Assembly (NCBI GenBank): GCA_963850905.1
Contig: CAWKMU010000003.1
Location: 2,656,001 to 2,720,000 of the forward strand
Origin: an uncultured Gemmatimonadales bacterium
Lineage (GTDB): Bacteria; Gemmatimonadota; Gemmatimonadetes; Gemmatimonadales; Gemmatimonadaceae
Length of the DNA stretch: 64,000 nucleotides
Direction of reading: 5' to 3'
Under the pieces are notes generated by a model. It made no database searches. It was not told the DNA's origin and was given only the letters and a program-made list of their open reading frames with translations. Position numbers and translations under genes: made by a program. Numbering within the stretch: position 1 is the first letter of the stretch; every line of letters begins with the position of its first letter. Of the stretch, positions 14,777 to 50,468 are shown piece by piece.

Positions 14777-14777
<1 letters not shown>

Positions 14778-21732: not shown

Positions 21733-21749
21733 TCGGCGTTGCACGCCGA

Positions 21750-31558: not shown

Positions 31559-32062
31559 GGCAGCGAGCTCCGGAGCAGGGTCCGCGCACGGGTGAGCTGG
31601 CTCTTCGACGTGCCCTCGACGATGCCCAGCATCTCGGCGATCTCTCGATGGGTGTAGCCATAGACGTCGTGCAGGACCAAGACGTCGCGGGCGCCCTCGG
31701 GCAGCGCGCCGATCGCGCGCTCCAAATCGAGCGCGTCATCGAGGCCATTGGTGGCCGCGGGCGGCTCGAATGTCCGGTGCATCGACCGTGCGCCAATCGG
31801 CCCGGATGCGCTCCCGTCGGACATTCACCAGGAGCCCACACAACCACGAGCGCAGCGCCGACCGCCCGCGGAACGATGACAACGCGCGCACGGCCCGGAC
31901 CCAGCTCTCCTGCACCAGGTCCTCCGCTTCGCCTTGATCGCCGCCCGTGAGGCGCAAGGCCAGCGCATAGAGCGCCGGTGTGTGCGCCCGATACAGCGCG
32001 CGAAATGCGTCTTCGCCGCGCGCTCGAAGAAACCGCTCAACGAGCGCGTGGTCGTCCGTCAC
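31555..32062 (-). CDS. ECF sigma factor (frameshift near 31770)
   Basis: AEDLVQESWVRA, FRGRSALRSWL, LHDVYGYTHREIAEMLGIVEGTSKSQLTRAR. Confidence 0.88.
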
Positions 32063-32691
32063 GGAGCCTTGGTGGGGTCCACCCAATCGCGCGTGACGAC
32101 GATGAGCGCGGACATCGGCGTCCCTTCCTGGACGACGGCCGGGACGTCCATGCTGTTCGATGTGATGATGCCCATCGAGCTGTTCTTCATGAGCGGATAG
32201 TAGATCATGACGTGTGGCATGAATCGGGAGCGGGCCGTCCCTTTCGCATCGGTGAGCACCTGAGACGATGACTCCATGTACACCAGCGCGGGGCGCTGCG
32301 GCGACCGGAACCGGCCCGAGGCCAACCCGCTATCGACCTCCGCCTTGATTTCGTCGTGGGTCTTGCCGGCGATCCGCTGCTCGACACGGAAGCGATAGAT
32401 GGCCAACACTGTCGCGTCAGCCTCGGCATCCCCGCATTGCGGCTCGAAGGATGTCGGAGAGCTCCGGGCCACGACGCACGCGATACCCGAAGTGCCGGGC
32501 TCCGCAACGACATAGCGGCCGTTCTCGAGCACCCACACCTTGGCATCCTTCGATATCTCCGCTGGTGCAGCGCTTTTCGCGTATCGAATCTCGTCCGCGC
32601 GCGACAGATTCATCGGAGCCGTTGGTGGTGGATCTTGCTGGGCTGCGATGGCGGCGGGGACCAGGAACAACGCAAGAATCCATGCATGCAT
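32059..32691 (-). CDS. Secreted hypothetical protein
   Basis: Signal peptide, AKSAAPAEIS, Cys pair, YMES, PHVMIYYP; GTGA overlap with the ECF gene. Confidence 0.7.
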   Translation of the reverse strand: MHAWILALFLVPAAIAAQQDPPPTAPMNLSRADEIRYAKSAAPAEISKDAKVWVLENGRYVVAEPGTSGIACVVARSSPTSFEPQCGDAEADATVLAIYRFRVEQRIAGKTHDEIKAEVDSGLASGRFRSPQRPALVYMESSSQVLTDAKGTARSRFMPHVMIYYPLMKNSSMGIITSNSMDVPAVVQEGTPMSALIVVTRDWVDPTKAP

Positions 32692-32816
32692 TGAACACCC
32701 TTCACCGTTGAAGTTACCAGTGAGTGACGTTCGACCGCCAAAGGGTTGGAAGGCGATTGTTGTGGCCCGCGAACGGCGCGCGACGGATTGCGAGTTGGCG
32801 TCGCCGAACCGTCATT

Positions 32817-33063
32817 CGGCGGGTAGGGGCGACGCAATGCGTCGCCCTCCATCCCCGCACCGCATGCACCGGCATCGACGTGGGTGCCGTTCTTCTTAAT
32901 GTCGGGCGGCGTAGCCGGCGAACGGCGGGTAGGGGCGACGCAATGCATCGCCCTCCATCCCCGCGCCGCATGCACCAGCATCGACGTGGGTGCCGTTCCT
33001 CCTAATGTTGGGGGGCGTGGCCGGCGAACGGCGGGCGGCGCATTGCGTCGCCCCTACCAGCCG
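32817..33063. repeat. REP cluster: two tandem 106-bp units, each starting with a GTAG REP, closed by an inverted REP
   Basis: REPs at 32823 and 32929 (+) and 33033-33057 (-); the linkers are near-identical. Confidence 0.85.
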
Positions 33064-33113
33064 TATTGCGGTTTCGTGGCTGAGCGCCGGCGTCGCGTTC
33101 TGTGAATCGTCGG

Positions 33114-33596
33114 TCAGCCCAGCTGAAGATCGGTATCCGGTGCGGGGTGGCCGAGCAGTCGGCACATTGCGACGACTTGCCCCTTGTGATGAAAGGCGTG
33201 GGTCATCACGTGGTGCAGGATGAACGCCGGGCTGCGGAGTTCCCCAATCCACTGCTGTGGACGTCGCGCCAGGGGAACGTCGAGCGCCGCCTCCGGCAAT
33301 CGATCGAGGTATGCTTCCGTCGCGCGCATCACTCGCTCCTTGGCTGCGCGGAGCGATGCTGCGGTCGGAAAGTCTGCTGCCGACCATGGCCGGATCGGCC
33401 GATCTTCGAGCCGCAGGACCCAGCGCTCTTCAGCTCCCAGGATGTGCATGAGCTGCTCGCGGACACTCGACGCTCCAAACCCGGGAAGTTCCCGAGCGAA
33501 TTCGTCCGCGCTCAGCACTGCGGCATGCTCTACCACGATGTGCAGCCTCGCGTGCGTCCACTGGTGGAGCGCGCGAATCCCGTCCCTGGTGAACAT
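33114..33596 (-). CDS. DinB/YfiT family protein
   Basis: SVREQLMHILGAE.W and LHHVMTHAFHHKGQV His triad. Confidence 0.88.
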   Translation of the reverse strand: MFTRDGIRALHQWTHARLHIVVEHAAVLSADEFARELPGFGASSVREQLMHILGAEERWVLRLEDRPIRPWSAADFPTAASLRAAKERVMRATEAYLDRLPEAALDVPLARRPQQWIGELRSPAFILHHVMTHAFHHKGQVVAMCRLLGHPAPDTDLQLG

Positions 33597-33728
33597 GTTA
33601 CCAAGTTACGCGGGGTCGACGGCGGGGTCAGGGGGCGGGCGCTTGCACACCCGAGAACGCAGAACCACAGAAAATAGAGGAAAGACGTCCGATTGCCGAT
33701 CGAGGGTGTTTGTAGGTACCTCGGCGAG

Positions 33729-33757
33729 TTGAGCGAGACGGTGCGAGCGCCTAAGTT
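33729..33757 (+). promoter_or_regulatory. Putative sigma70 promoter of tRNA-Met
   Basis: TTGAGC-17 bp-TAAGTT. Confidence 0.45.
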
Positions 33758-33773
33758 GTTGTGAATCAACGTC

Positions 33774-33847
33774 GGCAGGGTAGCTCAGCTGGTTAGAGCA
33801 CGGCACTCATAATGCCGGGGTCGCGGGTTCGAGTCCCGCCCCTGCTA
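33774..33847 (+). tRNA. tRNA-Met (CAT), probably elongator
   Basis: GGCAGGG/CCCTGCT acceptor stem, TAGCTCAGCTGGTTAGAGC D-arm, CGGCA-CTCATAA-TGCCG anticodon arm, GTTCGAGTC. Ile2 identity is not excluded. Confidence 0.95.
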
Positions 33848-34043
33848 TTTGGGAAATCGCGGGGCCGCGCCGGCTTGCACGATTTGGCGCCAAGGGCCAG
33901 CCGGCAGTGGCGGCGCTTGGCATGTCTTCGTATCCTCTGGGCGCATGATTGTCCGCCCGGAGCGCAAGCGCGCCGGCACTGTTCACTGCCCCTGACCGGG
34001 TTGATCGTCCCAGGGAGGCACGGTCCACCGTCTGTCACGTAGC

Positions 34044-37000
34044 GTGCGACCTGCGGCACGTCGCCTCGACCGACCGTTTGCCGCGTTCCGTGGGCTAGCG
34101 GGTTATCTTCTCGCTGCCGTTCTGTGCCAGGGGTGTAGTCGGCCATCCGGCGCCCGGAGTGTGGCGCTCGAGGAATGCGATCCGGCGGCATATATCCGTT
34201 GCATTCAGCAAGCCGCCGTCCTTTCAATTCCTGTCTCTGGAACCGGGCTGGCCCTTAGCTATTCGAGCCAGTGGAAGTCCGACGGCGCTGGTCCTGACAA
34301 ATGGGAGTCGCGTCGACTTGGCTTGGGCGGCTGGTCGATCAACGTCCTGGAGAGTTATGACACGGCGGCTCACGTGCTGGCCAGTGGGGATGGAACGTGG
34401 CGCTTGGTGCCGAGCGTCAACCTACCGGCGGGGGAGTATGCGGTGCCGAGCTTTGATGGCTCCACGGCGCACATATTCGATCGCGAGGGCCGCCACGTTC
34501 GCACAGTCGACGGGCGCTTGGGAACCCAGCTCGCAAGCTTCGGCTACGACACGGCCAGCCGCCTTGCCTCGATCAATGGATACGTTGGCGGTCACCCGGT
34601 TCATCTGGTAGTCGAGAGGGGCCCGAACGGGGTTCCGCGTGGTATCTCGGCTCCGGACGGCGGGACGACCACGCTGCAAGTGGATAGCGCGGGCGATCTG
34701 GTGCGAATCACCGACCCGGCTGGCAATGCTATTCGCGTTGGATGGAACGCCCAGGGCCTGGTCGCGTCCGAAACGGATGCCTTGGGGGCGACCCAAAGGT
34801 TCACCTACGATGACGCGGGGCGTCTGGCGACATTTACTGACGCCGACAGTGTCGTGCAGCACCTCGAGCGCAGGGCGGCTCCAAACCGGGTCGAAATCGT
34901 CGCATCGACGTCTCTTGGCAGACGGTGGGTCTACCGTGTGGAGGCCGCTGCCGACGGTAGTCGGCGCACGTTGATCGCACCCAATGGAACTACGAGCCTC
35001 GAGACCCTCGATGCCGAGGGCAGGCGCACGATCACGTACGCCGATGGGACGAAGTGGAGTGTGGGAGCGGCTCCGCACCCGACCTGGGGACGCGCGGCAC
35101 CACTGTTGACTCCAATGGTGCTGACGCGAGCTGATGGAGTTATCTCGAGGCAAGACTTGAAAGCTTCGCTCCATTCGCAGGGTGGTCTTCCCTACGTCCT
35201 CGCGGGCTCGATGACGACTACCGTGAATGGGCGATCATGGGTCGAGGCGATTGATCCCGCTCATTTGACCACGACGTGGACCGATCCAGCTGGCCGGCTC
35301 ATAACGACCACCTTTGACCCCAACGGACACATTCTCGAGCACTCTGCACCGGGCGTAGCACCACTTTCGTACGAGTATGACAAACTTGGCCGGCTCGTCA
35401 CTGTGATGCGTGGGCTCGGCAACCTCGCCGAAACGACGCGCTACGCGTACAACGCACGAAGCGGGCAGATCACCCTAACCCGGCCGGATGGGAGCAGGGA
35501 GCAGACGTTCGTTGACCGAGTTGGCCACATCGTCAGTGTGTCCCCGGGCGACAACGCCGGCGCCACCATCAGCTATGATGCGGTCGGCCGTCTCGCGGCT
35601 GTTCACAGGGCGGTGGGGATGATGTTCACCCTGGGAACCAGTAGCGCGGGGCGCCAGACGGCGTTCGCACCCCCAATGGTGCCAGGTGATTCGTCAGTCG
35701 AAACGCGCTCTTATGACGTCGACGGTCAACTCGTGTCGATCTCTGGGCTAGGTCAGCGGTCAGTCAACGTCACATATAACGAAGCAGGTAAACCTGCTGC
35801 CTGGACCTTCGATCGCGGAAGCGCCGCCGCGTCCTACGACCCCCGCTCCGGACTGACTACTCGCACCGTCGATCCCTCGGGAGTAATCACGACTTACAGT
35901 TACGTCGGAACAATGCCGAGCCTCTTGACATGGTCGGGACCAGTCAGTGGCTCGGTCTCAGAGGTGTTTGAAGCCGGAGAGCGGCCGGCAAGAGAGGTGG
36001 TGAACGGCGTCGACAGCTTGGCATTCGCCTACGATCCGGGCGGAGAACTCATAGGCCTCGGTCCGTTGACTCTGAGGCGAAGCGCCACGACCGGCCTTGT
36101 GGAGCGCGCAACGGTTGGCGTCATCGAGACAAACCAGCAATTCGACGCGAGCGGACGGATGACGCGCTCGGTGACGACCGTGCTCGGCCGGACCGTGCTC
36201 GACGATCTGTACGCGCGTGATGCATTGGGTCGACTTCGAACGGTCAGGGAGTCGACGGCGGACGGCGCACCATCGGAGACACAATATGGCTATGACAATG
36301 CCGGGCGGCTCGCGTCAGTCCGAGTCAATGGCCGCGCGGTCGAAACCGATAGGTATGATCCGGCGGGCAATCGCGTCAGGAGTACGGGGGTGCTCGGAAA
36401 CGTGTCGGCCAGTTACGACGACCGCGATCGATTGCTGACGTGGGGCGAGCGCCGCTACACGTGGAGCGCAGATGGCAAGCTACAACGTCGAGTCGACGCC
36501 GCCGGTGTAACCTCGTTTGCATATGATGACTTCGGAGCGCTTCGCGGGGTGACGCTTCCCGATGGCCGCGTGATCACCTATCTGGTCGATGCCACGCAAA
36601 GGCGCGTCGCTCGACAGGTTGCGGGCACGCTCTCCGCCGAGTACCTGTACCGACCCGATGGCGCGGTGGCGGCGGTAATCGATTCAACGGGGCACGGTGG
36701 TTCGCATCTTGGTTACGATGGGGACGGACACCTGGCTCTCGTTGTGCGATCGGGAGTCGCCTATCGCGTCATCACGGATATTGCCGGAAGTCCCCGCCTG
36801 GTCATCGACTCACAGACGGGGCGCGTGGTCGACGCGATTACTTACGACGCGTGGGGGGGCGTCATCCGAGAGACCGCGCCCGGATTCATCCCGATCGGGT
36901 TTGCCGGCGGACTACGCGACGCCTACACCGGTCTCATACGATTTGGCGCTCGCGACTACGATCCTGGTTCTGGTCGATGGACCGGTGCAGACCCACTTCG

Positions 37001-39290
37001 CTTCGCTGGCGGCGACCTCAACCTATATCGCTATGCGGCTGGCGACCCGGTCAATCGCGTCGACCCGACGGGGCTTCAGTGCGCCGAAACGGGGCGATCC
37101 TCGACCTGCTATCAGCCGAACAATGGTGGCAACTCCAACTTCCTGCCGGCTCCGTCCGGCGGCGGCTGGTGCATCGGCTTGGGGAACTGCTGGAACCAAG
37201 TGCCGCCGAGGAATCTTCCCCCGGAGCAGCCGCCAGCCCCGCCAACACCACCTCCTGGTCCAGGCGGCGGCGGCGGTGGCAAGCCCTGGTCCTGTTCTGG
37301 GTTCGTCTGTACCGGGCCCAATAACGCGACCTGTGTGTTTGGCAGCTGCGGGTACGGCCCCGGGGGATTTCAGTGCTGGGGGTTCGTCTGCAATGGCCCC
37401 GACAACCAAACCTGCGTGTTGTGCTCGATGGGCGACACGCACGTGGTGACAGTCGGCGGGACCCACTTCGACTTCCAAGCGGCAGGGGAATTTCTCGTTG
37501 CCGCCTCCGCTGACGGCTCAACCGTGATTCAGGGCCGCCAGGAGCCCGTGTCGGGCGGGACCAATGTCACCTTCAACACCGCTGTGGCGGCAAGCGTCAA
37601 TGGCGATCTGGTAGGAGTTTACGCGAGAGAGCCGGCATTTCTCGTGGTCAACGGTGCGCCAATGAGTGAGACGAGCACGGATCGGCGTCTGCCCCACGGC
37701 GGGACGGTCGAGCGTCGTGGTGCTCTCGTCGTCCTGAGCTGGCCGAACGGCGATCAGCTCGCCATCACTCGGACGGCAAACACGCTGAATTACAGCTTCG
37801 GCGAGGTTGGCGGAGCCACGCACACGATGACAGGCCTGTTGGCCAGTGCACACGAGGACGAACTCGGCGCCGTCACGGGACGCAATGGAACGACGCTCCA
37901 GCTATCGGATCCGATGTTCCATTCAAAGGTATACCAGCAGTTCGGCAACAGCTGGCGGATCAAGCAATCCGAGTCACTTTTCCACTACTGGCCCGGAGAG
38001 AGCTCGGCCAAGTTCACAGATCTAAAGATTCCGTCGCGTCCAGCAACGGTTTCGTCGTTGACGGCGGCCGTGAGCGGCAAGGCCGCGTCTGTCTGTCGGG
38101 CTCTTGGCGTGCATCGCCAGCCGCTACTCAATGATTGCATCTTGGATGTTGGAAAGACCGGAGCTCCAGACTTCGCAACTGCGGTCGCCACAATCGCCGC
38201 CAACTGGACCCAATGGCGAGGAGAGGCACCACTGCCCGTGTCAGCGCACCCACCGGCGGCCGCGCCTGGCTCAGCGTCTACGACTGTCCCCGAGGCTGTG
38301 GTGCCTGATCGCTACAATATTGCGACGGGAGACAGCGTTGCGCCTGACCGGCCTGTGCGAGGGGCGGGGATCATCACGCATCGCGGACAAACGCAGACGT
38401 ATTCATTCATCGCGAAAGCTGGTGAGATCTGGTATGTCGGGATTGGTCCTTGTAGCGGCGCTCCGATCAGCTTTGATCTCCGCGATCCAAAGGGCAAATC
38501 GATCGCAAGTCGGACCGGCTGCGGTGACAATCTCGGGCCCCTAACGACCGGCGACAGCGGCACCTACAGCATCGTTGCGACCGCCGACAGCGCTGCTCGC
38601 TATGCGTTCAGTTTGCGCGCTACGCGGCTCGACAGCTATAGGATCGCGATCGGCGATAGTGTTGGCTCGAACCGTCCATCTGCAGGAGCAGGGGTCATCG
38701 CCACTCCTGGCGAGCGACAGTGGTTCACTTTTTCTGCGACACGGGGGGCGATTGTCTACGTCAAGGTCGGCCCGTGCGACGGGGCGGCAATGAGTTTCGA
38801 TCTCACGACGGTGAGCGGTGCGTTCGTCGGCGGCAAGAGTGGTTGCAACGACCTTGGCCCGATGACGCTACCAGCCGGCGGCGCGTACCGAATCACGACC
38901 AGTGCTGGTCCGGGGACGGCAAACTACAGGTTTGTGCTGTTGGGGACCACTCTAGACCGGTACACGATCAAGATCGGAGACACCGTGTCCCCGGGTCATC
39001 CCACCGGCGGAGGTGGTATCATCAGTCACCTAGGGGAACGCCAGTGGTATTCATTTTCAGCGCCCGCAGGCGCCACTGTGACCGTCAAGGTCGGACCCTG
39101 TGCCGGGGCGCCAATGACCTTTGACCTCGTGAGTGAAGGCGGTAAATGGCTGGGCGGCAAGGACGCGTGCGGCGACTTTGGTCCGATGAGCCTGCCGTCC
39201 GCTGGAACATATCGCATCGTGACTAGTGCTGACCGTGGCAGCGCTCGCTACACTTTCTCGCTATTGAAGGCGACCGCGGGCCTGCAATGA
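34044..39290 (+). CDS. Teneurin-like YD/RHS repeat protein with C-terminal VWD domain and three Ig/PPC-like repeats; probable lipoprotein
   Basis: LCQG-C lipobox-like signal; YD repeats; RHS core FGARDYDPGSGRWTGADP...PVNRVDPTG; GDTH..GTHFDFQAAGEF (VWD); three ~108-aa repeats. Confidence 0.85.
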   Translation: MRPAARRLDRPFAAFRGLAGYLLAAVLCQGCSRPSGARSVALEECDPAAYIRCIQQAAVLSIPVSGTGLALSYSSQWKSDGAGPDKWESRRLGLGGWSINVLESYDTAAHVLASGDGTWRLVPSVNLPAGEYAVPSFDGSTAHIFDREGRHVRTVDGRLGTQLASFGYDTASRLASINGYVGGHPVHLVVERGPNGVPRGISAPDGGTTTLQVDSAGDLVRITDPAGNAIRVGWNAQGLVASETDALGATQRFTYDDAGRLATFTDADSVVQHLERRAAPNRVEIVASTSLGRRWVYRVEAAADGSRRTLIAPNGTTSLETLDAEGRRTITYADGTKWSVGAAPHPTWGRAAPLLTPMVLTRADGVISRQDLKASLHSQGGLPYVLAGSMTTTVNGRSWVEAIDPAHLTTTWTDPAGRLITTTFDPNGHILEHSAPGVAPLSYEYDKLGRLVTVMRGLGNLAETTRYAYNARSGQITLTRPDGSREQTFVDRVGHIVSVSPGDNAGATISYDAVGRLAAVHRAVGMMFTLGTSSAGRQTAFAPPMVPGDSSVETRSYDVDGQLVSISGLGQRSVNVTYNEAGKPAAWTFDRGSAAASYDPRSGLTTRTVDPSGVITTYSYVGTMPSLLTWSGPVSGSVSEVFEAGERPAREVVNGVDSLAFAYDPGGELIGLGPLTLRRSATTGLVERATVGVIETNQQFDASGRMTRSVTTVLGRTVLDDLYARDALGRLRTVRESTADGAPSETQYGYDNAGRLASVRVNGRAVETDRYDPAGNRVRSTGVLGNVSASYDDRDRLLTWGERRYTWSADGKLQRRVDAAGVTSFAYDDFGALRGVTLPDGRVITYLVDATQRRVARQVAGTLSAEYLYRPDGAVAAVIDSTGHGGSHLGYDGDGHLALVVRSGVAYRVITDIAGSPRLVIDSQTGRVVDAITYDAWGGVIRETAPGFIPIGFAGGLRDAYTGLIRFGARDYDPGSGRWTGADPLRFAGGDLNLYRYAAGDPVNRVDPTGLQCAETGRSSTCYQPNNGGNSNFLPAPSGGGWCIGLGNCWNQVPPRNLPPEQPPAPPTPPPGPGGGGGGKPWSCSGFVCTGPNNATCVFGSCGYGPGGFQCWGFVCNGPDNQTCVLCSMGDTHVVTVGGTHFDFQAAGEFLVAASADGSTVIQGRQEPVSGGTNVTFNTAVAASVNGDLVGVYAREPAFLVVNGAPMSETSTDRRLPHGGTVERRGALVVLSWPNGDQLAITRTANTLNYSFGEVGGATHTMTGLLASAHEDELGAVTGRNGTTLQLSDPMFHSKVYQQFGNSWRIKQSESLFHYWPGESSAKFTDLKIPSRPATVSSLTAAVSGKAASVCRALGVHRQPLLNDCILDVGKTGAPDFATAVATIAANWTQWRGEAPLPVSAHPPAAAPGSASTTVPEAVVPDRYNIATGDSVAPDRPVRGAGIITHRGQTQTYSFIAKAGEIWYVGIGPCSGAPISFDLRDPKGKSIASRTGCGDNLGPLTTGDSGTYSIVATADSAARYAFSLRATRLDSYRIAIGDSVGSNRPSAGAGVIATPGERQWFTFSATRGAIVYVKVGPCDGAAMSFDLTTVSGAFVGGKSGCNDLGPMTLPAGGAYRITTSAGPGTANYRFVLLGTTLDRYTIKIGDTVSPGHPTGGGGIISHLGERQWYSFSAPAGATVTVKVGPCAGAPMTFDLVSEGGKWLGGKDACGDFGPMSLPSAGTYRIVTSADRGSARYTFSLLKATAGLQ

Positions 39291-39395
39291 GGTACCCACA
39301 GAGGTACCCAAACTTGCGCCGTTTCGCACCGCGCCGTGCCGCGTTACGCCTAGTCTTCAGAGGGAAACTCAAGATCTAGTGCGGGCGAGTCTGAT

Positions 39396-39436
39396 CTCAT
39401 AATGCCGGGGTCGCGGGTTCGAGTCCCGCCCCTGCT
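39396..39436 (+). repeat. attR: displaced 3' half of tRNA-Met
   Basis: Identical to 33806-33846, with no D-arm or 5' acceptor strand upstream. Confidence 0.9.
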
Positions 39437-39662
39437 GTTCTGCCAAGGCTTGCGACCAGTGTCAGTTACGGGCCTTTCTGCATCCGTTTCATCGGGTGCG
39501 ACCGATGATATCGGTGATGCTGACGATGTCGCCGCCGAAATCCAACGCGGCATGTTCGTGCCGGCGTGCATAGATGCCACTGTCTTGCTACGAGGTGCCT
39601 CTCCTTTGAGCAGACCTGGCTGGCTTCGGCCCCGATCAGCCCAGCGCCGGCGATGAGTTGAA

Positions 39663-40010
39663 CTAGCGGCCGCTCAGCTTGAACTCCCAGCCCCATTCGT
39701 TGCCGCCATCCTTCATATCAGTGATGAATTGGGTGAGGTAGGACGCCAGTTTATCCGGCGCAATCTCTTCCCCGTCGTCGTTGACGAACGAATTCCCCGT
39801 TCGACGTATGCCATAAGATCCCGCAAGATCCGGCGCCGTCACGGCGCACAGCTTGATGTTCGCCTCGCCCAAGGGCTTGGAGAAGGAAAGACTCTTTCCC
39901 GACGCATCGCAGAAGACGTCAGTCTGGGTTCCCTTCTGAACGGTTACCATGAGACTCACAAGCTTCGGGAGATTCGAGTCTATGATTCTCCATGCCTCGC
40001 GTTCATTCAT
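39663..40010 (-). CDS. Hypothetical protein (115 aa)
   Basis: Protein-like composition with an upstream GGAG; no motif recognised. Confidence 0.6.
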   Translation of the reverse strand: MNEREAWRIIDSNLPKLVSLMVTVQKGTQTDVFCDASGKSLSFSKPLGEANIKLCAVTAPDLAGSYGIRRTGNSFVNDDGEEIAPDKLASYLTQFITDMKDGGNEWGWEFKLSGR

Positions 40011-40539
40011 GTTGCATCACTCCAATTGAGAGTTGCCGTGCCCCTGTGCGGCAACATTGGGCAGGACCTTTTTCGTGTCCGAATTAAAGCCACGGTAGCG
40101 TAGCGTGAAATGAGCCGCCGCCTTGAGCACCTGACCGACGACTTGAAATCGGGCCTGACTGTGGGGCTGACACTGTCGCCACACGTCTGTTCTCGCAGCA
40201 TCTAAACTGCCGCGCCGCCGTCAGGGCAGGAAGGGCGCCGGCCGGTGGCGGTTGCGTGAGCGACTCTAAGGATCGAAAGGGCGCTCGAGTGGCTGGTCTC
40301 AGCCGCTCAGTAGGACAGGCCAGCGGGCAAAGGCCGCTTTGGTGGCGGCGTCTGATGCATTGATCCATCATTATTGCCCTCATGCGTTGTGCGGCACTCC
40401 AGAGATCAGGCCCAATTATGACCGATCAAGGCGCCGGCGACATGGCGAGCGAACTGGCTCGCGCTTCCGAGCGACGCAGCTATGCATCGTACTTCAATTG
40501 GCCCGACGCTGTCGTTGAAGAACGTGGTGTGGCGCGAGG

Positions 40540-42012
40540 ATGAAGCCCGCGAGTGCCGGACCCGCCCTTGCTGCGTCGCCAGCGACTGAGCTCGCCCAAG
40601 CCGAGGCGCGCGTGGAGGCGCAAAGCGCGTCGCTCAAGAAAGAACTCGGCCTCCGCGACCTCGTCCTCACGCAGATCCTCGTCATCGTCGGGCTCTCCTG
40701 GATCGGCGTCGCGGGGAAGTTGGGACCGTCGCACGCCGTCTTCTGGCTGCTCGCCCTTGTGCTCTTCTACGTACCATCGGCGGCCGTGGTCATGTACCTC
40801 AGCCGGCTGATGCCGCTCGAGGGCGGGTTGTATCAGTGGGCGAAGCTCGGCTTCAGCGACACGGTCGGCTTCATGCTCGCGTGGAACCTCTGGCTGTACG
40901 TCATCGTGTTCACGTCGGAGGTCGGCGTGGAGTGCGCGACGTACCTGTCGTACGCGCTGGGGCCGAACGCGGCGTGGATGACGACGAGCACCTGGTTTGT
41001 GGCGTTGTCTAACGCCGCGATTCTCTCGCTGATGGTCGTGATGTCGACAATCGGGTTGTCGATCGGAAAGTGGTTACACAATGCGGGCGGCGTCATGATG
41101 CTCCTGATCTTCGGCGCCTTGCTTGTGCTACCCGCGCTCGGCCTGATTAGCGGACGACTCCACGACTATCATCCACTTCGCGCGAGCATTCCTTCGTTCT
41201 CGCTGTTCAACCTCAACATTCTTGGCAAGCTCGGCTTCGGTGCCCTGGGCGGATTCGAGTACGTCGCCATCCTCGCAGGCGAGACCAGATCACCCGGGCG
41301 ATCGGTCGCGCGATCAGTGCTCATCGCGGCGCCGATCATCGCGTTGATGTTCGTGCTCGGCACGGGCGCCGTCGTTGCGTACGTCCCAACGAACGACATT
41401 GATCTGGTGGGGCCAGTGCCTCAGGTCCTCCGCGTTGGGTTCGGCCCGTTCGGCATCGCCGGACAACTCGTAACCGTCGCGATCCTGATGACGCTTACCA
41501 TGCGCATTGGCCAGGCGAGCGTCAGCTTCACGGCCGTGACGCGCTTGCCGATGGTCGCGGGCTGGGACCGCCTGCTGCCGCTCTGGTTCAGCCGGTTGCA
41601 CGCCACGTATCGGACGCCAGTGAACTCGATCATGGTCGTTGGCGCGTGCTCATTCGGCATCGCGTTGTTGAGCCTCGTGGGGGTCCGGCAGGCGGAGTCG
41701 TTCCAACTGTTGAACAGCGCGAGCGGAATATTCTATGCATTGACGTACGTCGTGATGTTCGCGATCCCCTTGTTCGGCCTTCGGGGCGTGGTGCCGCGGC
41801 CATCGGTATGGCTGCAGGCGGCCGCGATGTCGGGGCTTCTAATGACACTCCTCTACGTCACGCTCTCGGTGTTTCCGATCATCAAAGTGGAGAGCGTGGC
41901 GGGATTCGCGCTCAAGATCTCACTCGTGATCGCGGGGATGAACGTCGTGGGGATCGGCATCCTCGCCTCGGCGCGCCGGCGATCGGCACGGCTTGCGGTG
42001 GTTGGGGCCTGA
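40540..42012 (+). CDS. APC-family amino acid permease
   Basis: LKKELGLRDL, EGGLYQW, GGFEYVAILAGE; about 12 TM segments. Confidence 0.92.
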   Translation: MKPASAGPALAASPATELAQAEARVEAQSASLKKELGLRDLVLTQILVIVGLSWIGVAGKLGPSHAVFWLLALVLFYVPSAAVVMYLSRLMPLEGGLYQWAKLGFSDTVGFMLAWNLWLYVIVFTSEVGVECATYLSYALGPNAAWMTTSTWFVALSNAAILSLMVVMSTIGLSIGKWLHNAGGVMMLLIFGALLVLPALGLISGRLHDYHPLRASIPSFSLFNLNILGKLGFGALGGFEYVAILAGETRSPGRSVARSVLIAAPIIALMFVLGTGAVVAYVPTNDIDLVGPVPQVLRVGFGPFGIAGQLVTVAILMTLTMRIGQASVSFTAVTRLPMVAGWDRLLPLWFSRLHATYRTPVNSIMVVGACSFGIALLSLVGVRQAESFQLLNSASGIFYALTYVVMFAIPLFGLRGVVPRPSVWLQAAAMSGLLMTLLYVTLSVFPIIKVESVAGFALKISLVIAGMNVVGIGILASARRRSARLAVVGA

Positions 42013-42023
42013 GCCGGGCAGCA

Positions 42024-42347
42024 ACTGCGCTGGGTGCACGGTCTCTCCTATGGCGAGATCGCGACGAAACTCCACAACGCTCCTCGGACGGTTGAGCGCC
42101 AGCTCGCCTTGGCGGACAAAGCGCTCCGAACCTATCTACCGATGATCCGACCGCAGCGATAGCTGTCGGTTCAGCCAGCGGGTGGTCGATTGTGGGTTTG
42201 CGGCCCCTCAGTCGTTACTTGAGTGTGGAGACTCAAGACGACAGGCGTCGATGAATCCGCGTGACTCGGTTGGTTGGATCCTGGTCGACCGCTTTCTGGC
42301 CGGAGAATGCTCCCCGGCGGAAGCAGAGAGCGTTCGAGAACGAGCAC
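42024..42347 (+). pseudogene. Duplicated fragment: ECF 3' end, intergenic region and fecR 5' end (copy of 44221-44544)
   Basis: 324-bp ungapped direct repeat with about 11 substitutions by manual comparison. Confidence 0.9.
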
Positions 42348-42453
42348 CGATCTGCACACGACCATCGGGCCGATCGCAGAAGCTGTGTCGAGCACGTGTT
42401 CGAATACACAAGCTGAGCAAAGGATTCGAATCACCCACATGGGAGGGGCAGTG

Positions 42454-43605
42454 ATGAAAGCGAGCCTGCTTCACGGTGGCCTCCGGGTCACGCCAATGCC
42501 AATCCGTGCTGCGGCAATGGTGGCAGCGTTGTCTGCCGCGGTCATGGTTCCCTCGGCCCTCGCACAACAGGCGCAGACCTCGTCCTTTACCGTTGGCACC
42601 GCGACCGCACAACCTGGCGCACTCGCGACTGGTGTGGTTGTTGTGCCGCCAGGTTCAGATTCGGGGCTTTCCATCCCCGTTGCGGTGATTCGCGGCGCCC
42701 ATGTCGGCCCCGTCATCACCTTCATGGCCGGAACTCACGGGACTGAATACGCCTCGGAGGTTGCGCTCCAGCAACTGATCACCCGCGTCGACGCCAAACA
42801 GCTCGCAGGCACGGTGATCGTCGTTCCGATCGTCAATATCCCGTCGTTCGAGACGATGACGCCGCATTTGAATCCGGTCGATCGCAAGAGCATGGCAGGA
42901 GGGGTGGGCGATCCATTGGGGACACAAAGCCCGCGCACGTTGGCGATCATGTTGCAACAAATTATTGTCCCCGCTGACGTCGTGGTCGATCTCCATGGTG
43001 GAGACCTCGACGAGAACCTGCGCGCCTACAGTTACTGGAATCGCACCGGGCATGCGAGCCAGGACTCGGCATCCCTGCGGCTAGTGCGGGCCTTCGGGAT
43101 GAGCACTGTTCTCGTCACCAACGCGAACATTGATGGGCCAAATTCGGGTCACCCCTATGGAGGCTACGCGCTCAAGAACGGCAAAACGCTGCTCGTTGCA
43201 GAAGCGGGACGTACCGGCACCGTGGCGCCCGCGGATGTGGCGGCGCTCGTGAACGGATCGCTCAATGTCTTGGACGCGCTTCACATGATCAAGCACCCCT
43301 CAACGCCAGTAACCCAGATCAGATGGCTCGAGGGCCCTGGCAAGACCATCACCGCAGATAGTGCAGGAATGTTCTTCGCGTCGGTTGATCGCGACACCCG
43401 GGTGACCGCGGGCCAGGTCGTCGGGTACACAACAGACTTCCTCGGTCATAAAACAGGTGATGTTCGGGCGCCGATCGATGGCCTCGTAACGTACATCCGA
43501 GGCGTCCCATCAATGTGGCCGAAAGCCGTGCTATTCGGCGTCATCCCAGTCATGCCAGGTGCACCACCGCCATGGCAAGCGCCTGCCCCAGTCGCTGCTC
43601 GCTAG
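42454..43605 (+). CDS. Secreted succinylglutamate desuccinylase/aspartoacylase (M14-like) protein
   Basis: Signal peptide, AGTHGTE, VDLHGG, EAG; GGAGG RBS. Confidence 0.85.
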   Translation: MKASLLHGGLRVTPMPIRAAAMVAALSAAVMVPSALAQQAQTSSFTVGTATAQPGALATGVVVVPPGSDSGLSIPVAVIRGAHVGPVITFMAGTHGTEYASEVALQQLITRVDAKQLAGTVIVVPIVNIPSFETMTPHLNPVDRKSMAGGVGDPLGTQSPRTLAIMLQQIIVPADVVVDLHGGDLDENLRAYSYWNRTGHASQDSASLRLVRAFGMSTVLVTNANIDGPNSGHPYGGYALKNGKTLLVAEAGRTGTVAPADVAALVNGSLNVLDALHMIKHPSTPVTQIRWLEGPGKTITADSAGMFFASVDRDTRVTAGQVVGYTTDFLGHKTGDVRAPIDGLVTYIRGVPSMWPKAVLFGVIPVMPGAPPPWQAPAPVAAR

Positions 43606-43749
43606 CAGAAGGTTGAGAGCTGTGTTGTCAGCGAACTAAAGACGAGGGCTCGTCATCTCTAGTCGGGGCGAGCCCCGGCGTCGCGCCGTGTGAGGCGCCA
43701 AAGTGTGAATGGTCCGTGGCGGCTATTGCGGCCCAGATGCGCCCGTTGC

Positions 43750-44359
43750 ATGATAGCTGCCCCAATGCAGACCGTGTCGGCTCCTGGGACCCGAGGCCTG
43801 GACCACGAGACCGCCCTTGCTGCGCGCATCCGCGCCGGCGATGAGGAGGCATTCGAGACTGTGTTTCGGTCTCACGCCGTGCGGCTGGCTGATTTTGCGT
43901 GCGCATTCCTGGGGTCGAGAGATGATGCGGAAGATGTGGTGCAAGCCATTCTTTACAAGGCTGTGGTTGACGCGCGATCGCTTGGACCCGCGAGCGCCCT
44001 TGGCTGCCCACTTGACGTTGGCGACTCGCAACGAGGTCAGGGATCGGATCAAGCACAATCGCGTCGTCGCTCGCTGGCAAGCCGAAGTCCTCCAGCATGG
44101 GTCGCACTTCGGTTCGGCTGTCACCCCAGGATGCGACGACGAGTTCGATGCGCGCGACACTGCAGCCGCGATCTGCGCGAGCGTCGCCGCTTTCCCACCG
44201 CAGCGACGTGCCGCCTGCACACTGCGCTGGGTACACGGTCTCTCCTATAGCGAGATCGCGACGAAACTCCACATCGCTCCTCGGACGGTTGAGCGCCACC
44301 TCGCCTTGGCGTACAAAGCGCTCCGAACCTATCTACCGATGATCCGACCGCGGCGATAG
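43750..44359 (+). CDS. FecI-like ECF sigma factor (frameshift near 43950)
   Basis: GDEEAFETVF, AEDVVQ, GLSYSEIATKLHIAPRTVERHL. Confidence 0.85.
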
Positions 44360-44447
44360 CTGTCGGTTCAGCCAGTGGGTGGTCGATTGTGGGTTTGCGA
44401 CCCCTCAGTCGTTACTTGAGTGTGGAGACTCAAGACGACAGGCGTCG

Positions 44448-45500
44448 ATGAATTCGCGTGACTCGGTTGATTGGATCCTGGTCGACCGCTTTCTGGCCGG
44501 AGAATGCTCCCCGGCGGAAGCAGAGAGCGTTCGAGAGCGAGCACGCTCGGACCCGGCATTCGCGGCGCACCTCGACTCGGCACGATTCGTCCGCGACGCG
44601 CAGCGCGCAGCGCATGGCCGTTCCAATGTCGATCGGATGTGGCGGGCCGTACTCGCCGCGACGAGCGCCGCCGGTGACCCCGCAAAGCCGCACAAGCGCG
44701 AGCCGCCGGTGCAAGCTTTCCGAGTCGTCCCGCCGCAACCCGGGGGATGGTGGCGACGGCGCTCCTTTGCAGCAGCAGCTGCGTGCGCGCTTGGCCTCGT
44801 AGGCGTTGCGTCGTTCTTCATCGCCGATCGCCCTGCGACCGAGCAAAGCCTAACGACCACAACCCGTGACTACGCGGCGGGACCGCAAGAGCGAGCAGCC
44901 ATCGAACTGCCCGACGGCACGCACGTCCTTCTTGCACCAGGCAGCCACTTGAAGGTGCCAGCAGACTTCTCGCGCGAACGCCAGGTCAATCTGGACGGCG
45001 AGGCCGAATTCAGCGTGGTTCACAATACGCGACGTCCTTTTAGTGTCCGCACGGCACAAACGGTTACGCGCGATGTCGGAACGGCGTTCGATCTACAGGC
45101 GTACGCCGAGAGTGGGACGACTCGAGTGATTGTCACCGAGGGAACGGTGGACGTCGGTGGTCTGTCAGTGAAGGCAGGTCAGGCCGCTGTAGTCACGGCG
45201 CACGCGCCGCCCGCCATCATCCCCCGCGTGCATCCAGACGAGGACTTGGGCTGGACTCGCGGGCAGCTGGTCTTTGACGCCACGCGAGTGTCGGACGCAG
45301 CGACCATTATCAGCCGATGGTATGCCGTTGATGTGCGGGTTCCCGACTCCGCGCTTGGCGCACGTCACGTGACGGCGCGCTTTACAAATCCTTCGGTCGA
45401 CCAGGTACTTGCCAGTCTGGCGTCGACGCTCAATGTGCGCGTCGATCGGACTGATCTGACAATAACGCTGTTACCGCAGGAGTCGAGGTCAACTAAATAG
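44448..45500 (+). CDS. FecR-family anti-sigma/signal transducer
   Basis: TM segment, LPDGTHVLL, LDGEAEFSV, VGTAF, VTEGTV, WTRGQLVF. Confidence 0.9.
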   Translation: MNSRDSVDWILVDRFLAGECSPAEAESVRERARSDPAFAAHLDSARFVRDAQRAAHGRSNVDRMWRAVLAATSAAGDPAKPHKREPPVQAFRVVPPQPGGWWRRRSFAAAAACALGLVGVASFFIADRPATEQSLTTTTRDYAAGPQERAAIELPDGTHVLLAPGSHLKVPADFSRERQVNLDGEAEFSVVHNTRRPFSVRTAQTVTRDVGTAFDLQAYAESGTTRVIVTEGTVDVGGLSVKAGQAAVVTAHAPPAIIPRVHPDEDLGWTRGQLVFDATRVSDAATIISRWYAVDVRVPDSALGARHVTARFTNPSVDQVLASLASTLNVRVDRTDLTITLLPQESRSTK

Positions 45501-45518
45501 CGTTTCGCGGGAGGCGGC

Positions 45519-48500
45519 ATGCATCACTGCAGGACTGTGAAGGGCATGTTCGTGGTCGGAGGCGCACTGCTCGCGGCAGCTGCCCCGACACGCGCAAAGG
45601 GCGCCCAGGATACAACGGGCGGTACTCCGGCAACGCAGCTTGCCATACTGACCGCCAGCCCGACGCCATCGTTCTTTGAAAGGACGGGCAGCCGCCGCAC
45701 CACGGTGAATGGCGCAATAGTGCCGGGTTTCCAACGCCGGGTGTCGCTCTCACTCGTGGATGTACCGGTCGCCGATGCCATCCGACGGATTTCGGAAGAA
45801 GCAGGCCTCGATTTTACCTACAGCCCTGAAATCTTCCCCGAAGGGGCCAGTGTCTCGCTCCGGGCGGAAGACATAACGGTCGTTGCAGCACTAACGGACG
45901 TGCTGCTCAATACTCAGGTAGACGTCGAAGTCACCCGCGACGGGCATGTGAACTTCGTCAAGCGTGCCGCCGCGAAACGCCAGCAGGGCCGCATCACGGG
46001 ACGGGTGATTGACGCAGACACACATCTCGGCATTCCAGCAGCGCCAGTGACCGTCACAGGGACAACGATCGGTGTAACCACGAGCGACAGTGGGACCTTT
46101 GCCCTCCCAATGCCACCGGACGCGAGGACCCTGTCGGTGCGACGCATCGGGTACCTCGCCCAGGTTGTGGCCCTCGAGACCGGAAAATCCTATTACGAGA
46201 TTGCGCTCCAACACGACGTCTTGCGGCTTCAGGCCGAGGTCGTGACCGGCGTCGCGACGACGGTGGCTTCTCAGAACGCGGCCAATGCGGTGGCCGTCGT
46301 CAATTCTCAGGACATCAACGAGGTTCCTGCCCCGACAATGGAGAATTCGATTCAGGGCAAGATACCAGGGGCCGTCGTTACGACGAACAACAGTGGCGCA
46401 CCCGGGGGCGGACTGCAGATCCAGGTGCGTGGAATCACTTCCATCAACGGAAATGCCCTTCCGCTCTACGTCATCGATGGGGTTGTGGCCAACAACGAGA
46501 CGATCAATGCCGGTGACAACGCCATTGACCGCGGCGGCGGCGGGCAGACATCGACCGGGCAATCGGCTGCGACAGCGCCAAGCGGTCAGGATAACAGCCC
46601 CAACCGAATGGCTGACATCAATCCCGACGACATCGAGTCGATCGAGGTCCTGAAAGGAGCGTCGGCATCGGCGATTTATGGCTCCAAGGCATCGGCCGGC
46701 GTGGTCATCATCACGACCAAGCACGGGACAAGCGGCAAGCCGAAGTGGAGCCTCAACAACCAGGTTGGCCACTTCGCCCTATCGAACACGTATCCGGATC
46801 GGAGCTTCCCCACGCTAGCGGGCGCTCAAGCGTGGTACGTGAACGATGTGACTCGCGACAAAACTGCGGGTGCCATCGCTGCCGACAACTCGTTCATCAG
46901 CAGCTTGTACGCCGGACCGCAGGATTATCAGACACAACTCTTCGCCAACCCCCAAGCCGCCTACCAGACGAACCTGAGCGTGAGTGGTAGCGTGGGCAAG
47001 GCACAGTACTACTTGTCGGGGCTTTCGAAGTACGACAACGGCACGATGTACAACACGGGCTACAACAAGCAGTCCGTGCGGGCCAACATCACGCAGGAGG
47101 CCGCGTCGGGTCTGACGGTGGCCGCCAATTTAAACTACATCCACGACGTCACACGCCGCGGCATCACGGGTAACGACAACATTGGCATCAGCCCCTACGA
47201 CGTCTTCTCCTACACACCGGGGTTCTTGGCGCTCGATAAGGTGAACGCGGACGGCTCGTGGCCTCATAACTACTTTGGTCCCGCCAACCCGTTCGCCGAT
47301 GCCTATGAGATCCAAACGCCGCAGCAAGTGAGCCGATTCATCGGTGGTGGCAGCATCAACTGGACGCCGTGGAAGACTGAGCATCAGAGCGTGCAGGCCA
47401 ACTTCATCGGAGGAGCTGACCTCTCGAGTGTGCAGGACTTGCTGTATGCACCACCCGATCTGCAACAGGAGCAGCAACAACCATCTGGATTGCCTGGCAC
47501 AGCGGTGACTAACGGTGCCCAAATCAACTATTTCAATTACTCGATCAGCATCATTCATCGGTTCACCGGATTCTCGTGGCTCGACGCGACGACGTCGGCG
47601 GGATTCGTCCGCGAACGCCGGAGCACCACCAACCCGGTGTCGGTCGGTGAAAACCTGTTAGCCGGAGTCAATTCACCGACGGTCGGCACGGTGCAGCAGA
47701 ACTTCCTCTACAAGACCGCACAGCTCGACCAGTCGCTGTACGCCCAAGAGCAGATTCTCACCCTCGACTCTCGGCTGGCGGTCACCGCCGGCATCACCGC
47801 CGAGCGGTCGACCAACGATGGCGACATCACCAAGTTTTACTACTATCCGCGCTACTCGGCGTCCTACCGGCTGCCGCAGTTCGCCAGCGCGCTGGACGAG
47901 TTGAAGGTGCGCGTGGCGTATGGACAGTCTGGCAACCTGGCGCCCTACGGCGCCCGATATTCGACCCTCAGCCAGACACTCGACGGGGGTGCGAACGGTA
48001 TCGGCGGCAATCTGGAACTCGGCGATTCCCACATCAAGCCGGAATCGGAACAAGAAATCGAGACCGGATTCGACGCTACGTTCTTCCACTCGCGGGCTCA
48101 GCTCTCGGCCACGATCTACCAGAAGCGCCTGACCAGCCTGTTGCTGCAGGCGGGTGTGGCTCCTTCCTATGGGTACACAACGGAGTTTATCAATGGCGGC
48201 GAGTTCACGAACCAGGGGCTCGAGCTCTCGCTGCAGTCCACTCCGATCACGTTGCGGAACGGTTTCACGTGGGTGAACACGCTCACGTTCTTCCGCAACT
48301 ACAGCGTCGTCAACGCCCTGCCGGTGCCGCCGTTTACCGTGGAAAACGAATCCGGATTCGGCAACGGATTTCTCGCTCCGGGGAGGTCGGTATCGGAGAT
48401 TGTGAACCCCAACATCACCGGGGCCGGCGGCCTCCCTCTGTGGGTGGGTGATGTGTCACCCGGAATGCTGGTGAGCTTGGGCAACGAATTCACTTGGAAG

Positions 48501-48918
48501 GCGTTCCGTGTCTACGGGTTCCTCGACTGGAGCCGGGGCGGCAACCAGATCAACGTGACGGACTTTTACTACGATTTCGGCCCAGAGTTGTCCGCCGACT
48601 CGGCGTATGACGCCAGGCAGGTCGCAGCTCTAAACGCCGGCGAAGAGCCCTACACTGAGGGAGCTTCGTTCCTGAAGGTGCGTCAGGTGACGGCCAGCTA
48701 CACTCTGCCCCAGCGCGCGGTCAACCGGATCGGATTCGGCCGGATAAGCAGCGCGCGACTCTCGTTCGGTGGATACAACTTGTGGGGCATCTGACAAGTA
48801 TCACGGCCTCGATCCGGAGGTGAGTTTCGCCGGCGACCAGACGATTCGCGCCGCTGGAGACATCACACCGTACCCGCCAGCACGCAGCTATTTCTTCGGC
48901 CTCGACCTGGGATTCTGA
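45519..48918 (+). CDS. SusC/RagA TonB-dependent transporter with N-terminal STN extension (frameshift near 48790)
   Basis: PLYVIDG, DINPDDIESIEVLKGASASAIYGS, IKPE; the true C-terminus YPPARSYFFGLDLGF is in another frame. Confidence 0.93.
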
Positions 48919-48919
48919 C

Positions 48920-50468
48920 ATGACTCACCTTCGCGAAGGCGACACGCCGAAGCTCGGCCGGCACGCACACCGACCACCGAGTTTCCGAAGGTCTGCGCGG
49001 TACACCCTGTTGGCGACTGCGGCCGCCGCAGTCGCAGTGGCGGCCTGCACGGACAGCGCCGTCCCGTTCCTCACCGGGCCGACGTCTGTTCCAACCACGC
49101 CGACGGGGGTCCAGCAGGCCATTACGGGGCTGTTCAGCTACACGAGAAATGACCAGAAGGCCATCGCGCTCGAGAATGTCGTCGTTCGCGCGAGAGGCGG
49201 CGAATTTCACCAACACCGACTCGCGCTACATCACCTACAGCCTTGGTATCACGCCGATCGGCAACGGGGTGGGCTGGTTCACAACGTGGGCAAACGCATA
49301 CGAAAACATACGTGAGGCCCAGCAAATCTTGGCTTCGTTGCCGAACGTCGTGCCAAGCTATTCGACACAGGACATCGCCGGCATCACTGGGGTGGTCCAG
49401 ACCATTGAGGCCCTCAACTACATGTTCATCGCGTGGGCTCATGACTCGCTTGGGCTCGCGATCATGCAGTCGCCCAATGCTACCGCGCTGGCGCTCGCGG
49501 TGTGCAACGCTGACGGTTTGCGGTACATCATCGCACTGCTCGACTCGGCGAATAGAACCCTCAACACTGTCGGGCCGGTCCCGTTGCCCATCAAGGTGCC
49601 TCCCGGGTTCGCCGCCGTGTCGGCGATCGCCGCGCCAAGCACAACTCTTGGATCTTTCGCGGCATTCAATCGAGCGCTGGCCGCGAAGGCAGGACTGATG
49701 CTCGCCTACGCGATTGCACGTCAACAGCCCGCGTCCACACCGACCCCGGGCTCCGCCGGTACACCCAATGTGACGGCGTTGACGCGCGCCGACAGCGCGG
49801 CGACGGCTTCGGCGCTGTACAATCCCGGCGCGCTGGCACCCAATCCCATTGGGCAGTGGACATACGACAATTACTCGGTGCTGCACGATTTCAGTGCGCA
49901 GTCGGGCGATCAGACAAACCCGATCAACGGTGTCGTCGGGACACAGGCCGTGCTCGATGACGTGCCCAGTGACCAAGACACGGTGAACGACCTGCGTTGG
50001 AAGGCCAAGTTCTTGCTCAATCCGAACCCCGTCCAAGAGCAGGCGTATAGTTTCGTCGCGTCGAAGTACATCTACGGCATGTATCCAAGTCCTGCGTCAC
50101 CGATCCCCATCGTGCGCAACGAGACGCTCGTGCTGGTGCGGGCGCAGATCCGACTAGGGCTTGGCGATTTCCCCGGCGCTTTGGCGCTGCTCAACGATGT
50201 GAGGACCCAAGTCGGGGGACTGGCGCCAGTGGTTGCGTCGGGCTACGTGGCGGTCCGAGACGCCTTGCTGCGGGAACAACAAATATCGACGCTGATGGAA
50301 GGCGGCGCGGATCGTGTCATTGCGCTCCGCATGTATGGCCTCGAGGCGGTGCTGGACACGACGTGGACGCATACTCAATATGCGCCCGATCTGCACACGA
50401 CCATCGAGCCGATCCCAGAAGCGGAGCTTATCGGGCGCGGCGGCACGTTCAACACCACCTGCAACTAG
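48920..50468 (+). CDS. SusD/RagB-like lipoprotein (frameshift near 49175)
   Basis: VAAC lipobox, PIVRNETLVLVRAQ, LNDVR, PIPEAE; follows SusC. Confidence 0.85.

Follow-up and report, generated by a model that had tools for sequence, protein, structure and literature searches.

An integrase-less single-gene RHS unit at a tRNA-Met gene of a Gemmatimonadota bacterium, a possible decayed member of a tyrosine-integrase element family

Results

Structure of the tRNA-Met locus

A 64,000-nt stretch (in the following called the window) of the genome of an uncultured Gemmatimonadales bacterium (G000; 4.49 Mb, 6 contigs, 82% complete) was analyzed, and the study concerns a 5.6-kb unit with a single RHS gene that is inserted at a tRNA-Met gene. 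The tRNA gene call placed an intact tRNA-Met(CAT), the integration target, at 33774-33847 on the forward strand. It has the acceptor-stem pairs G2:C71 and C3:G70 and is presumably of the elongator type, as judged by acceptor-stem identity rules. Repeat comparison revealed that the segment 33806-33846 of this gene recurs in the same orientation at 39396-39436. The two copies are exact over 41 bp, agree at 43 of 44 positions up to 33849/39439, and have a spacing of 5590 bp. The right copy starts where the anticodon loop (CTCATAA, 33806-33812) starts, and the crossover probably took place within this loop. It is the only copy of the tRNA-Met 3′ part in the 4.49-Mb assembly that does not belong to a tRNA gene. 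The sequence comparison thus confirmed what a first-pass annotation had read from the letters, namely an attachment (att) repeat that starts in the anticodon loop, with the intact tRNA gene to the left and a displaced 3′ fragment, an attR-type junction, to the right.

Between the end of the tRNA gene and the repeat copy lie 5548 bp, of which the RHS open reading frame (ORF; 34044-39290, forward strand) occupies 5247 bp, leaving 196 bp on its left and 105 bp on its right. That only one gene is present also proved correct: the gene finder called this ORF of 1748 amino acids (aa; protein P0001) and no second gene between tRNA-Met and the repeat copy, and sequence searches of 33848-39395 detected neither an integrase gene nor an integrase tail.

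Misassembly of the repeat had been named beforehand as the result that would overturn this picture, and it was not found. A short-read contig (run X1, which may stem from the same sampling campaign as the source) covers 38807-39663 with two differing letters, none of them in the repeat; because it bridges the right junction, the repeat is regarded as real. That the unit is an assembly artefact is extremely improbable, even though the assembly is of the long-read type, with split housekeeping ORFs, and no single short-read contig covers the whole unit; the ends of the unit also match an independent element family (see below). Recurrent A>G differences from short-read contigs were seen in window 32000-41500 and 1-20000, together with several split housekeeping ORFs, which suggests long-read assembly errors.

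The right end and its element family

Pattern comparison revealed a right-end arm at 39289-39310 (forward strand), which consists of two direct GAGGTACCCA repeats with a 12-bp period and lies 85 bp before the core. The repeats are putative arm-type integrase sites, and the pair is identical over 26 bp to the pair at the left end of the distal element of the relative G002. A repeat of at least 8 bases at a 12-bp period occurs in 0.8% of random 80-bp stretches of the genome. In the zone between arm and core, alignment uncovered GCC boxes with a 10-bp phase (39316-39350, forward strand). The CC dinucleotides at 39329-30, 39339-40 and 39349-50 are invariant in 10/10 aligned ends, and 56-79 of the 107 positions of the zone in the nine other ends are identical to the window. 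Xis sites of phage lambda are a model for such phased boxes, and by this analogy the boxes may form an excisionase-binding zone. ICEMlSym is the corresponding model for the arm repeats; there, arm sites act in attL as well as in attR during excision (PMC11963761). Taken together, arm pair, phased boxes and core all stand at the spacing of the family, and thus attR appears to be retained.

For the comparison 20 of 40 relatives were fetched, namely all nine congeners and 11 others. The same arm motif and spacing were present in six other fetched genomes and in 10 scored metagenome loci. The pattern of arm plus core was found in 8 of 401 family genomes, a tally that includes G000 and the unpublished G315, with 0 control matches, and in 12 metagenome loci. 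Viral contigs yielded 0 matches to the pattern and no confirmed relative of the G112 integrase. The census of arms among loci found by the pattern favours right arms by construction; the unbiased sample comprises the 20 fetched relatives and the other tRNA sites of G000.

Complete elements, whose two ends carry matched arms, were identified in G094 (17.8 kb), G112 (9.2 kb) and G146 (27 kb); the complete 10.3-kb element of G002 has a different arm motif, again matched at both ends. In G094, G112 and G146 a matching left arm pair lies 50-74 bp past the tRNA gene, and a tyrosine integrase of 432-439 aa, above the Pfam cut-off in G094 and G146, is oriented towards the tRNA gene. Upstream of the integrase, the complete elements carry a small excisionase-like gene, which in G146 matches HTH_17 at E 8e-5. 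Their cargo is phage-like or related to defence; no conjugation genes were recognized in them, without a systematic search and without a search for relaxases. The reading of the repeat as an att duplication made by a tyrosine integrase with crossover in the anticodon loop was therefore upheld, as the same right end belongs to complete elements in relatives. Behind the same family of ends, G021, G175 and G292 carry unrelated cargo, in accordance with the earlier proposal to look for different cargo between the same ends.

In four loci (L065, L067, L068 and L070, from G094, G112, G292 and G146) the integrase frame crosses the left arm and the att core and stops in the antisense strand of the tRNA gene. 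Because the frame crosses the core, the C-terminus of the integrase would differ between the integrated and the excised form.

The left end and a series of decayed relatives

At the left end of the unit a hairpin (33850-33885, forward strand) follows the tRNA gene. It resembles the sequence past the last att copy in G001 (85% identity over 80 bp, core included) as well as left-end hairpins of the family. No copy of GGTACCCA with at most one mismatch was found in 33848-34300, and thus a left arm is lacking. The left junction consists of core and hairpin without arm repeats; it would suffice for the integration of a newcomer, yet it does not appear to be a full attL.

Several relatives are partly deleted as well. 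The integrase of G292 is shortened to its C-terminal part, and in G021 and the distal elements of G002 and G146 only an integrase tail is left (E 1e-10 to 8e-6). G175 contains a unit built like the RHS unit: it has a single gene for 797 aa and a right arm, and it lacks both the left arm and an integrase tail. G005 and G007 have the reverse pattern, a left arm without a right arm, showing that the loss of arms is not always one-sided. With complete relatives that share the right end and others that are partly deleted, the earlier idea of a remnant of a larger element gained support.

The segment that follows the right copy

Directly behind the right copy, the segment 39437-39509 (forward strand) was compared with G002 and folded. 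Over 72 bp it shares 79% identity with the left end of the second, distal element of G002, which runs on into the same arm repeat and the C-terminal tail of an integrase; the similarity ends exactly where the arm pair of G002 starts. The hairpin at 39445-39478, which the first-pass annotation had described, together with TTT, as resembling the original terminator, is present and weak (33 of 200 shuffled sequences fold equally well), and a terminator scan did not call it. The match to the G002 element rules out that it is the terminator of the host, and the segment is instead the left terminus of an older element that lies more distally.

Search for a helper and for excision products

If the unit could still move in trans, a helper would be expected. 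As had been proposed, a tyrosine integrase beside the same att core was searched for, and no intact cognate was found in the G000 assembly. The closest integrase, a fragment of 156 aa with about 40% identity, is located at tRNA-Leu and has different arms. Neither an excisionase homologue (E < 0.04) nor a second tandem arm site of the GAGGTACCCA type was detected in G000. Contigs from 4 of 12 listed runs were used; the runs belong to two studies that may be related to the source, and their depth was low, even, and equal over the unit and its flanks. Neither an empty-site joint nor a circle joint was seen in runs X1, X2, X3 and X5. This negative result has little weight, because only contigs at a depth of about 0-8 were available and the studies are only possibly related to the source.

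These results bear on the view of the first-pass annotation that the unit is a non-autonomous cassette, whose two ends a helper integrase would use for excision and integration. In favour of this view are the minimal packaging of the gene and the intact cores; in addition, the same end family has unrelated cargo in three relatives, and with 82% completeness the assembly could lack the helper. In contrast, the left arm, a cognate integrase, an excisionase, a second arm site and a circle are all missing from the evidence described above, and no relative has both ends of the RHS unit. Mobilization in trans is quite unlikely, and less likely than the decayed, cis-mobilizable remnant that is favoured in the Discussion.

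tRNA-Met as an integration hotspot

A tRNA-Met 3′ fragment was found 2.5-24 kb downstream of the gene in seven of the 20 relatives (G001, G002, G005, G006, G007, G021 and G035). The cargo of all seven stacks is unrelated to the RHS unit, and an intact integrase is present at tRNA-Met in only two of them (G002 and G035). In these two genomes tRNA 5′ fragments extend to gene position 41, 3′ fragments begin at position 33 or 28, and their overlap on the loop supports a crossover in the anticodon loop. tRNA-Met is thus an integration hotspot. G004 and G001 are devoid of the RHS unit, yet they are 92-94% identical to the window over a common 5-kb operon. In G004, tRNA-Met is followed after about 300 bp by a gene matching the 115-aa orphan gene of the distal block (window 39663-40010, reverse strand; 95.6% DNA identity), and in G001 the operon that starts at window position 56162 lies 55 bp beyond the final att copy. 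From this synteny it was concluded that 33850-56160 is accessory DNA and that the RHS unit is its tRNA-proximal part. Judged from the sequence comparison, the 5.6-kb unit is the one closest to the tRNA gene in a stack, with about 16.7 kb of further accessory DNA before the operon. No clean empty tRNA-Met site was found among the nine congeners, so that the native flank of the gene could not be fixed.

The distal 16.7-kb block (39437-56161) has a lower GC content, is absent from the tRNA-Met site in G001 and G004, and has lost both its own arm and its right end, including a right att copy. It encodes an amino-acid permease, an aspartoacylase-like protein, a cluster of extracytoplasmic function (ECF) sigma factor, FecR and TonB receptor, and two sortilin-type propeller proteins.

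Further units were observed at tRNA-Met in the relatives. L025, L028 and L029 (G005, G007 and G008) have in common a small integrase-less unit that encodes an S41 peptidase and has an arm on the left but none on the right; the G008 copy contains an additional ORF pair resembling an insertion sequence (IS), without an att copy. An antisense ORF of 120-150 aa at attL of these three genomes was considered as a piece of an integrase and rejected, as it had no Pfam match and no tblastn match from the G000 integrases. A second class of elements targets the 5′ side of tRNA-Met and leaves a displaced 5′ half (L022:2674-5585, L038:4051-4278). Arm-like repeats lie upstream of the restored tRNA-Met in this class (L021, L024), and an integrase tail is found there in G002.

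The tRNA-Ile array of the same genome

Outside of the window, at G000:C3:17466-72818, tRNA-Ile(GAT) is followed by seven att copies over 55 kb, and one further copy lies on C4. Most copies have their own right arm with an 11-12-bp period, a left arm and an integrase are present in the first unit only, and the native terminator flank stands behind five of the seven copies. Similar stacks are found in G004 and G001.

Such arrays could be built from cassettes that consist of host flank, cargo, right arm and core. Aberrant excision of the lambda-bio type is a model for the birth of a cassette of this kind, which might then be spread by helpers or by recombination over core plus flank. The native flank behind the five copies, which is known from the uninterrupted tRNA-Ile of G002, G003, G007 and G009, fits this explanation, as does the native flank behind three of four scored att copies in G004; a right arm was scored by script in six of the seven G000 units, and a left arm in the tRNA-proximal unit only. 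For the RHS unit this origin is nevertheless very unlikely. The native flank of tRNA-Met is not fixed, the left hairpin type also occurs together with arms in left ends of elements (G292, L052 and L054), and the two flanks of the RHS unit share only the 44-bp block.

The cargo protein P0001

ORF analysis, domain scans, alignments and a structure model were combined to characterize P0001. It starts with a lipobox-like N-terminus (Cys 31, assigned by eye), followed by an RHS/YD shell, in which RHS repeats and an Rhs core were recognized, with Asp-Pro motifs at 983 and 1007; both aspartates are invariant in 30/30 aligned homologues. The 738 residues past these motifs comprise a Cys/Pro-rich linker, a VWD-C8-like region (about 1120-1395) and three PPC-like repeats (1422-1745). 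A search with this tail gave 86 matches, of which the top 72 have RHS domains and are 29-54% identical in the tail. By their source names the homologues stem from Acidobacteriota, Chloroflexota, Actinomycetota and Gammaproteobacteria. Mean identity over the alignment columns is 51% in the shell, 51% in the VWD-C8 region and 36% in the PPC-like repeats. The Pfam threshold for VWD is passed by the homologues P0012, P0039 and P0054 and that for PPC by P0005; P0001 passes neither. The motif GDPH, which in mucins is an autocleavage motif, corresponds to position 1130, where 16 of 54 sequences have GDPH, 17 GEPH and 16, including P0001, GDTH.

A tail model computed from the 54-sequence alignment (predicted local distance difference test, pLDDT, 80) matched the D assemblies of MUC2/VWF as well as sandwich folds of the CUB or collagen-binding type, with E values of about 1e-8 to 1e-9, while the fold from the single sequence was uninformative (pLDDT 45). 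The sequence search of the PDB with the tail gave nothing significant, and one ESM Atlas match at 0.78 to a VWD cluster is a lead only.

The stop codon of P0001 overlaps the first arm repeat. It was considered that the gene is truncated at the arm, and this was rejected: P0003, P0005, P0006, P0009, P0012, P0034 and P0037 end 1-4 residues past the same repeat type, and P0001 is thus complete. With a GC content at third codon positions (GC3) of 0.68, the gene is at the 1st percentile of 472 genes. A full-length orthologue was found neither in 150 family genomes nor, at the DNA level, in the nine congeners. The cargo gene is thus foreign.

Instead of a short hypervariable C-terminal toxin domain, the protein has the long tail with its conserved VWD-C8 region and PPC-like repeats. 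No toxin domain was recognized, no immunity gene lies directly downstream, where the arm follows the stop codon, and Pfam and NCBIfam scans gave no PAAR, FN-plug or NHL matches. No promoter-like site was called before the gene. Among 10 homologue flanks no downstream gene is shared with the window; L084 and L087 match each other weakly, in antisense, at one place. As the homologues have no common downstream gene, a function similar to that of adhesins is more probable than one in a toxin-immunity pair. P0001 is probably not a polymorphic toxin, and its sequence suggests that it is likely a lipoprotein of a conserved cross-phylum family. A 960-aa protein with a distant VWD region (30%) is encoded about 10 kb from tRNA-Met in G004 (G004:C1:494952-495764; L173, L024).

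The surroundings of the homologues bear on yet another explanation, namely that the right arm and the repeat are immobile leftovers and that the RHS gene entered the hotspot separately by homologous or illegitimate recombination. In 10 of 11 full-length homologue loci from other phyla no tRNA gene or fragment was present in the fetched flanks, two of which were short. Moreover, the two ends of the unit belong to different element types, the match to the left end that partners the arm follows the repeat and not the tRNA gene, the distal block has lost its arm and right end, and the read depth over the unit equals that of the flanks. On the other hand, the right end is intact, with the family spacing and all invariant positions, and the gene stops inside the arm although its C-terminus is complete, as in P0003, P0009 and P0012. 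Furthermore, one homologue from Acidobacteriaceae (L085) is followed, after about 250 bp, by an arm-like repeat and a 3′ fragment of tRNA-Phe. An immobile scar with a separate entry of the gene is unlikely on this evidence.

Further features of the window and the genome

At window 21378-21735 Rfam identified a transfer-messenger RNA (tmRNA; 113 bits) that ARAGORN missed; ARAGORN calls another tmRNA on C4. The Rfam scan of the window revealed no families besides tRNA and tmRNA. At 32761-33073 lie two direct repeats of 106 bp (92%), which contain palindromes and resemble repetitive extragenic palindromic sequences (REP) or bacterial interspersed mosaic elements (BIME); G004 has them at the same place in more copies. 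Outside of the window, islands at tRNA-Gly(GCC) and tRNA-Leu(CAA) (G000:C3:2567416-2575978 and 3507141-3515633) have matched arms at both ends and at most integrase fragments.

Discussion

The reading that we consider slightly better than an even bet is that the unit belongs, as a decayed member without an integrase, to a family of tyrosine-integrase elements that target tRNA-Met. It would resemble the cis-mobilizable elements (CIMEs) and could move only in cis with a newly integrated helper. The complete members carry the integrase and the HTH_17 excisionase-like gene on the side of the tRNA gene and have a matched arm pair at each end. As the 3′ end of the integrase gene overlaps the left arm, deletions of the integrase would tend to remove this arm as well, and the product would be core, cargo, right arm and core. 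The armless tRNA junction could then act as a plain attB for a newcomer, which would bring attL, integrase and excisionase, recombine with the old attR and take the RHS gene along. If the helper later excised alone, a one-armed unit would remain in the new host. The cargo would be a lipid-anchored surface RHS protein, with a VWD-C8 and PPC-like tail that likely serves adhesion or binding and not killing.

Several observations weigh against this reading. A textbook CIME keeps both att sites, and here the left one is armless. The left hairpin resembles the resident flank of G001, and the left end may therefore never have been part of the unit. The same unit with an integrase is present in none of the relatives, and the deletion step was not seen for the RHS unit. 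The functions of the arm and of the excisionase sites are deduced from pattern and analogy, and no empty-site or circle joint appeared in the reads. In Streptococcus salivarius the most decayed units are farthest from the target gene (PMC5704250, PMC7563491), whereas the RHS unit touches the tRNA gene.

It is tempting to speculate beyond the single unit that the tRNA hotspots of the family are stacks of cassettes with attR only, to which transient helpers bring units and then leave, the right arm being selected and the left arm dispensable. We regard this as doubtful. If true, the tRNA-Ile array of G000 would be the clearest case, and the tRNA-Met unit would deliver an apparently undescribed non-toxin RHS-VWD surface lipoprotein. 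Literature searches found no description of an architecture of RHS, VWD-C8 and PPC, and the first 300,000 characters of PMC3482391 do not mention VWD or PPC.

Most likely the unit is a well-known kind of stranded remnant, and neither the element nor its cargo will greatly surprise a specialist. The analysis maps a tRNA-Met element family with defined arms and integrases in Gemmatimonadota, a poorly studied soil phylum, for which the titles and abstract openings of the island papers retrieved mention nothing on a tRNA-Met site. The family offers a ready pair of integrase and att site and a direct test of hit-and-run cis-mobilization. The cargo contributes an RHS family found across phyla, whose D region is mucin/VWF-like and which lacks an immunity gene.

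CIMEs, which have mostly been described in Firmicutes, were defined in streptococci as cis-mobilizable elements that are moved by accretion (PMC5704250, PMC7563491), and a comparable movement in cis was proposed for module-less ssrA islands of Dehalococcoides (PMC3146451). Like both, the RHS unit is bounded by att sites, has cargo only, without integrase or transfer genes, and belongs to a stack at one target gene; its size falls within the 1.2-13 kb given for classical CIMEs. Unlike CIMEs, its left att has no arm sites, no helper is adjacent, and cis-mobilization is deduced. The parents are small integrative or phage-like elements in which, in the absence of a systematic search, conjugation genes were not recognized.

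With the islands in tRNA genes (tDNA) collected by Islander (PMC4383910) and TIGER (PMC12424338), the unit shares the intact tRNA gene and a co-oriented displaced 3′ fragment starting in the anticodon loop, the subsite used by 2083 of the 3919 islands of Islander. It was also not found in the nine congeners, and the integrase is the sole part of the Islander definition that it lacks. Because both programs require an integrase gene within the interval, the RHS unit would be filtered out, and integrase-less tRNA islands in general are invisible to them.

The complete members resemble the att sites of lambda-type heterobivalent integrases, such as IntS with RdfS of ICEMlSym (PMC11963761), in that direct-repeat arms flank the core and an HTH_17 excisionase-like gene stands beside the integrase; the RHS unit differs in keeping the right arm only. 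The integrase frame that crosses the att core into the antisense strand of the tRNA gene in G094, G112, G146 and G292 is a Mx8-like trait. The cargo protein, finally, has the YD shell and the paired Asp-Pro motifs closing the core in common with Rhs toxins and teneurin-like proteins, and its lipoprotein-type signal is also found in some of the latter (PMC8636562, PMC13018210). In contrast to Rhs toxins, with a C-terminus of about 15 kDa, P0001 has one of 738 aa, in which the VWD-C8 region equals the shell in conservation.

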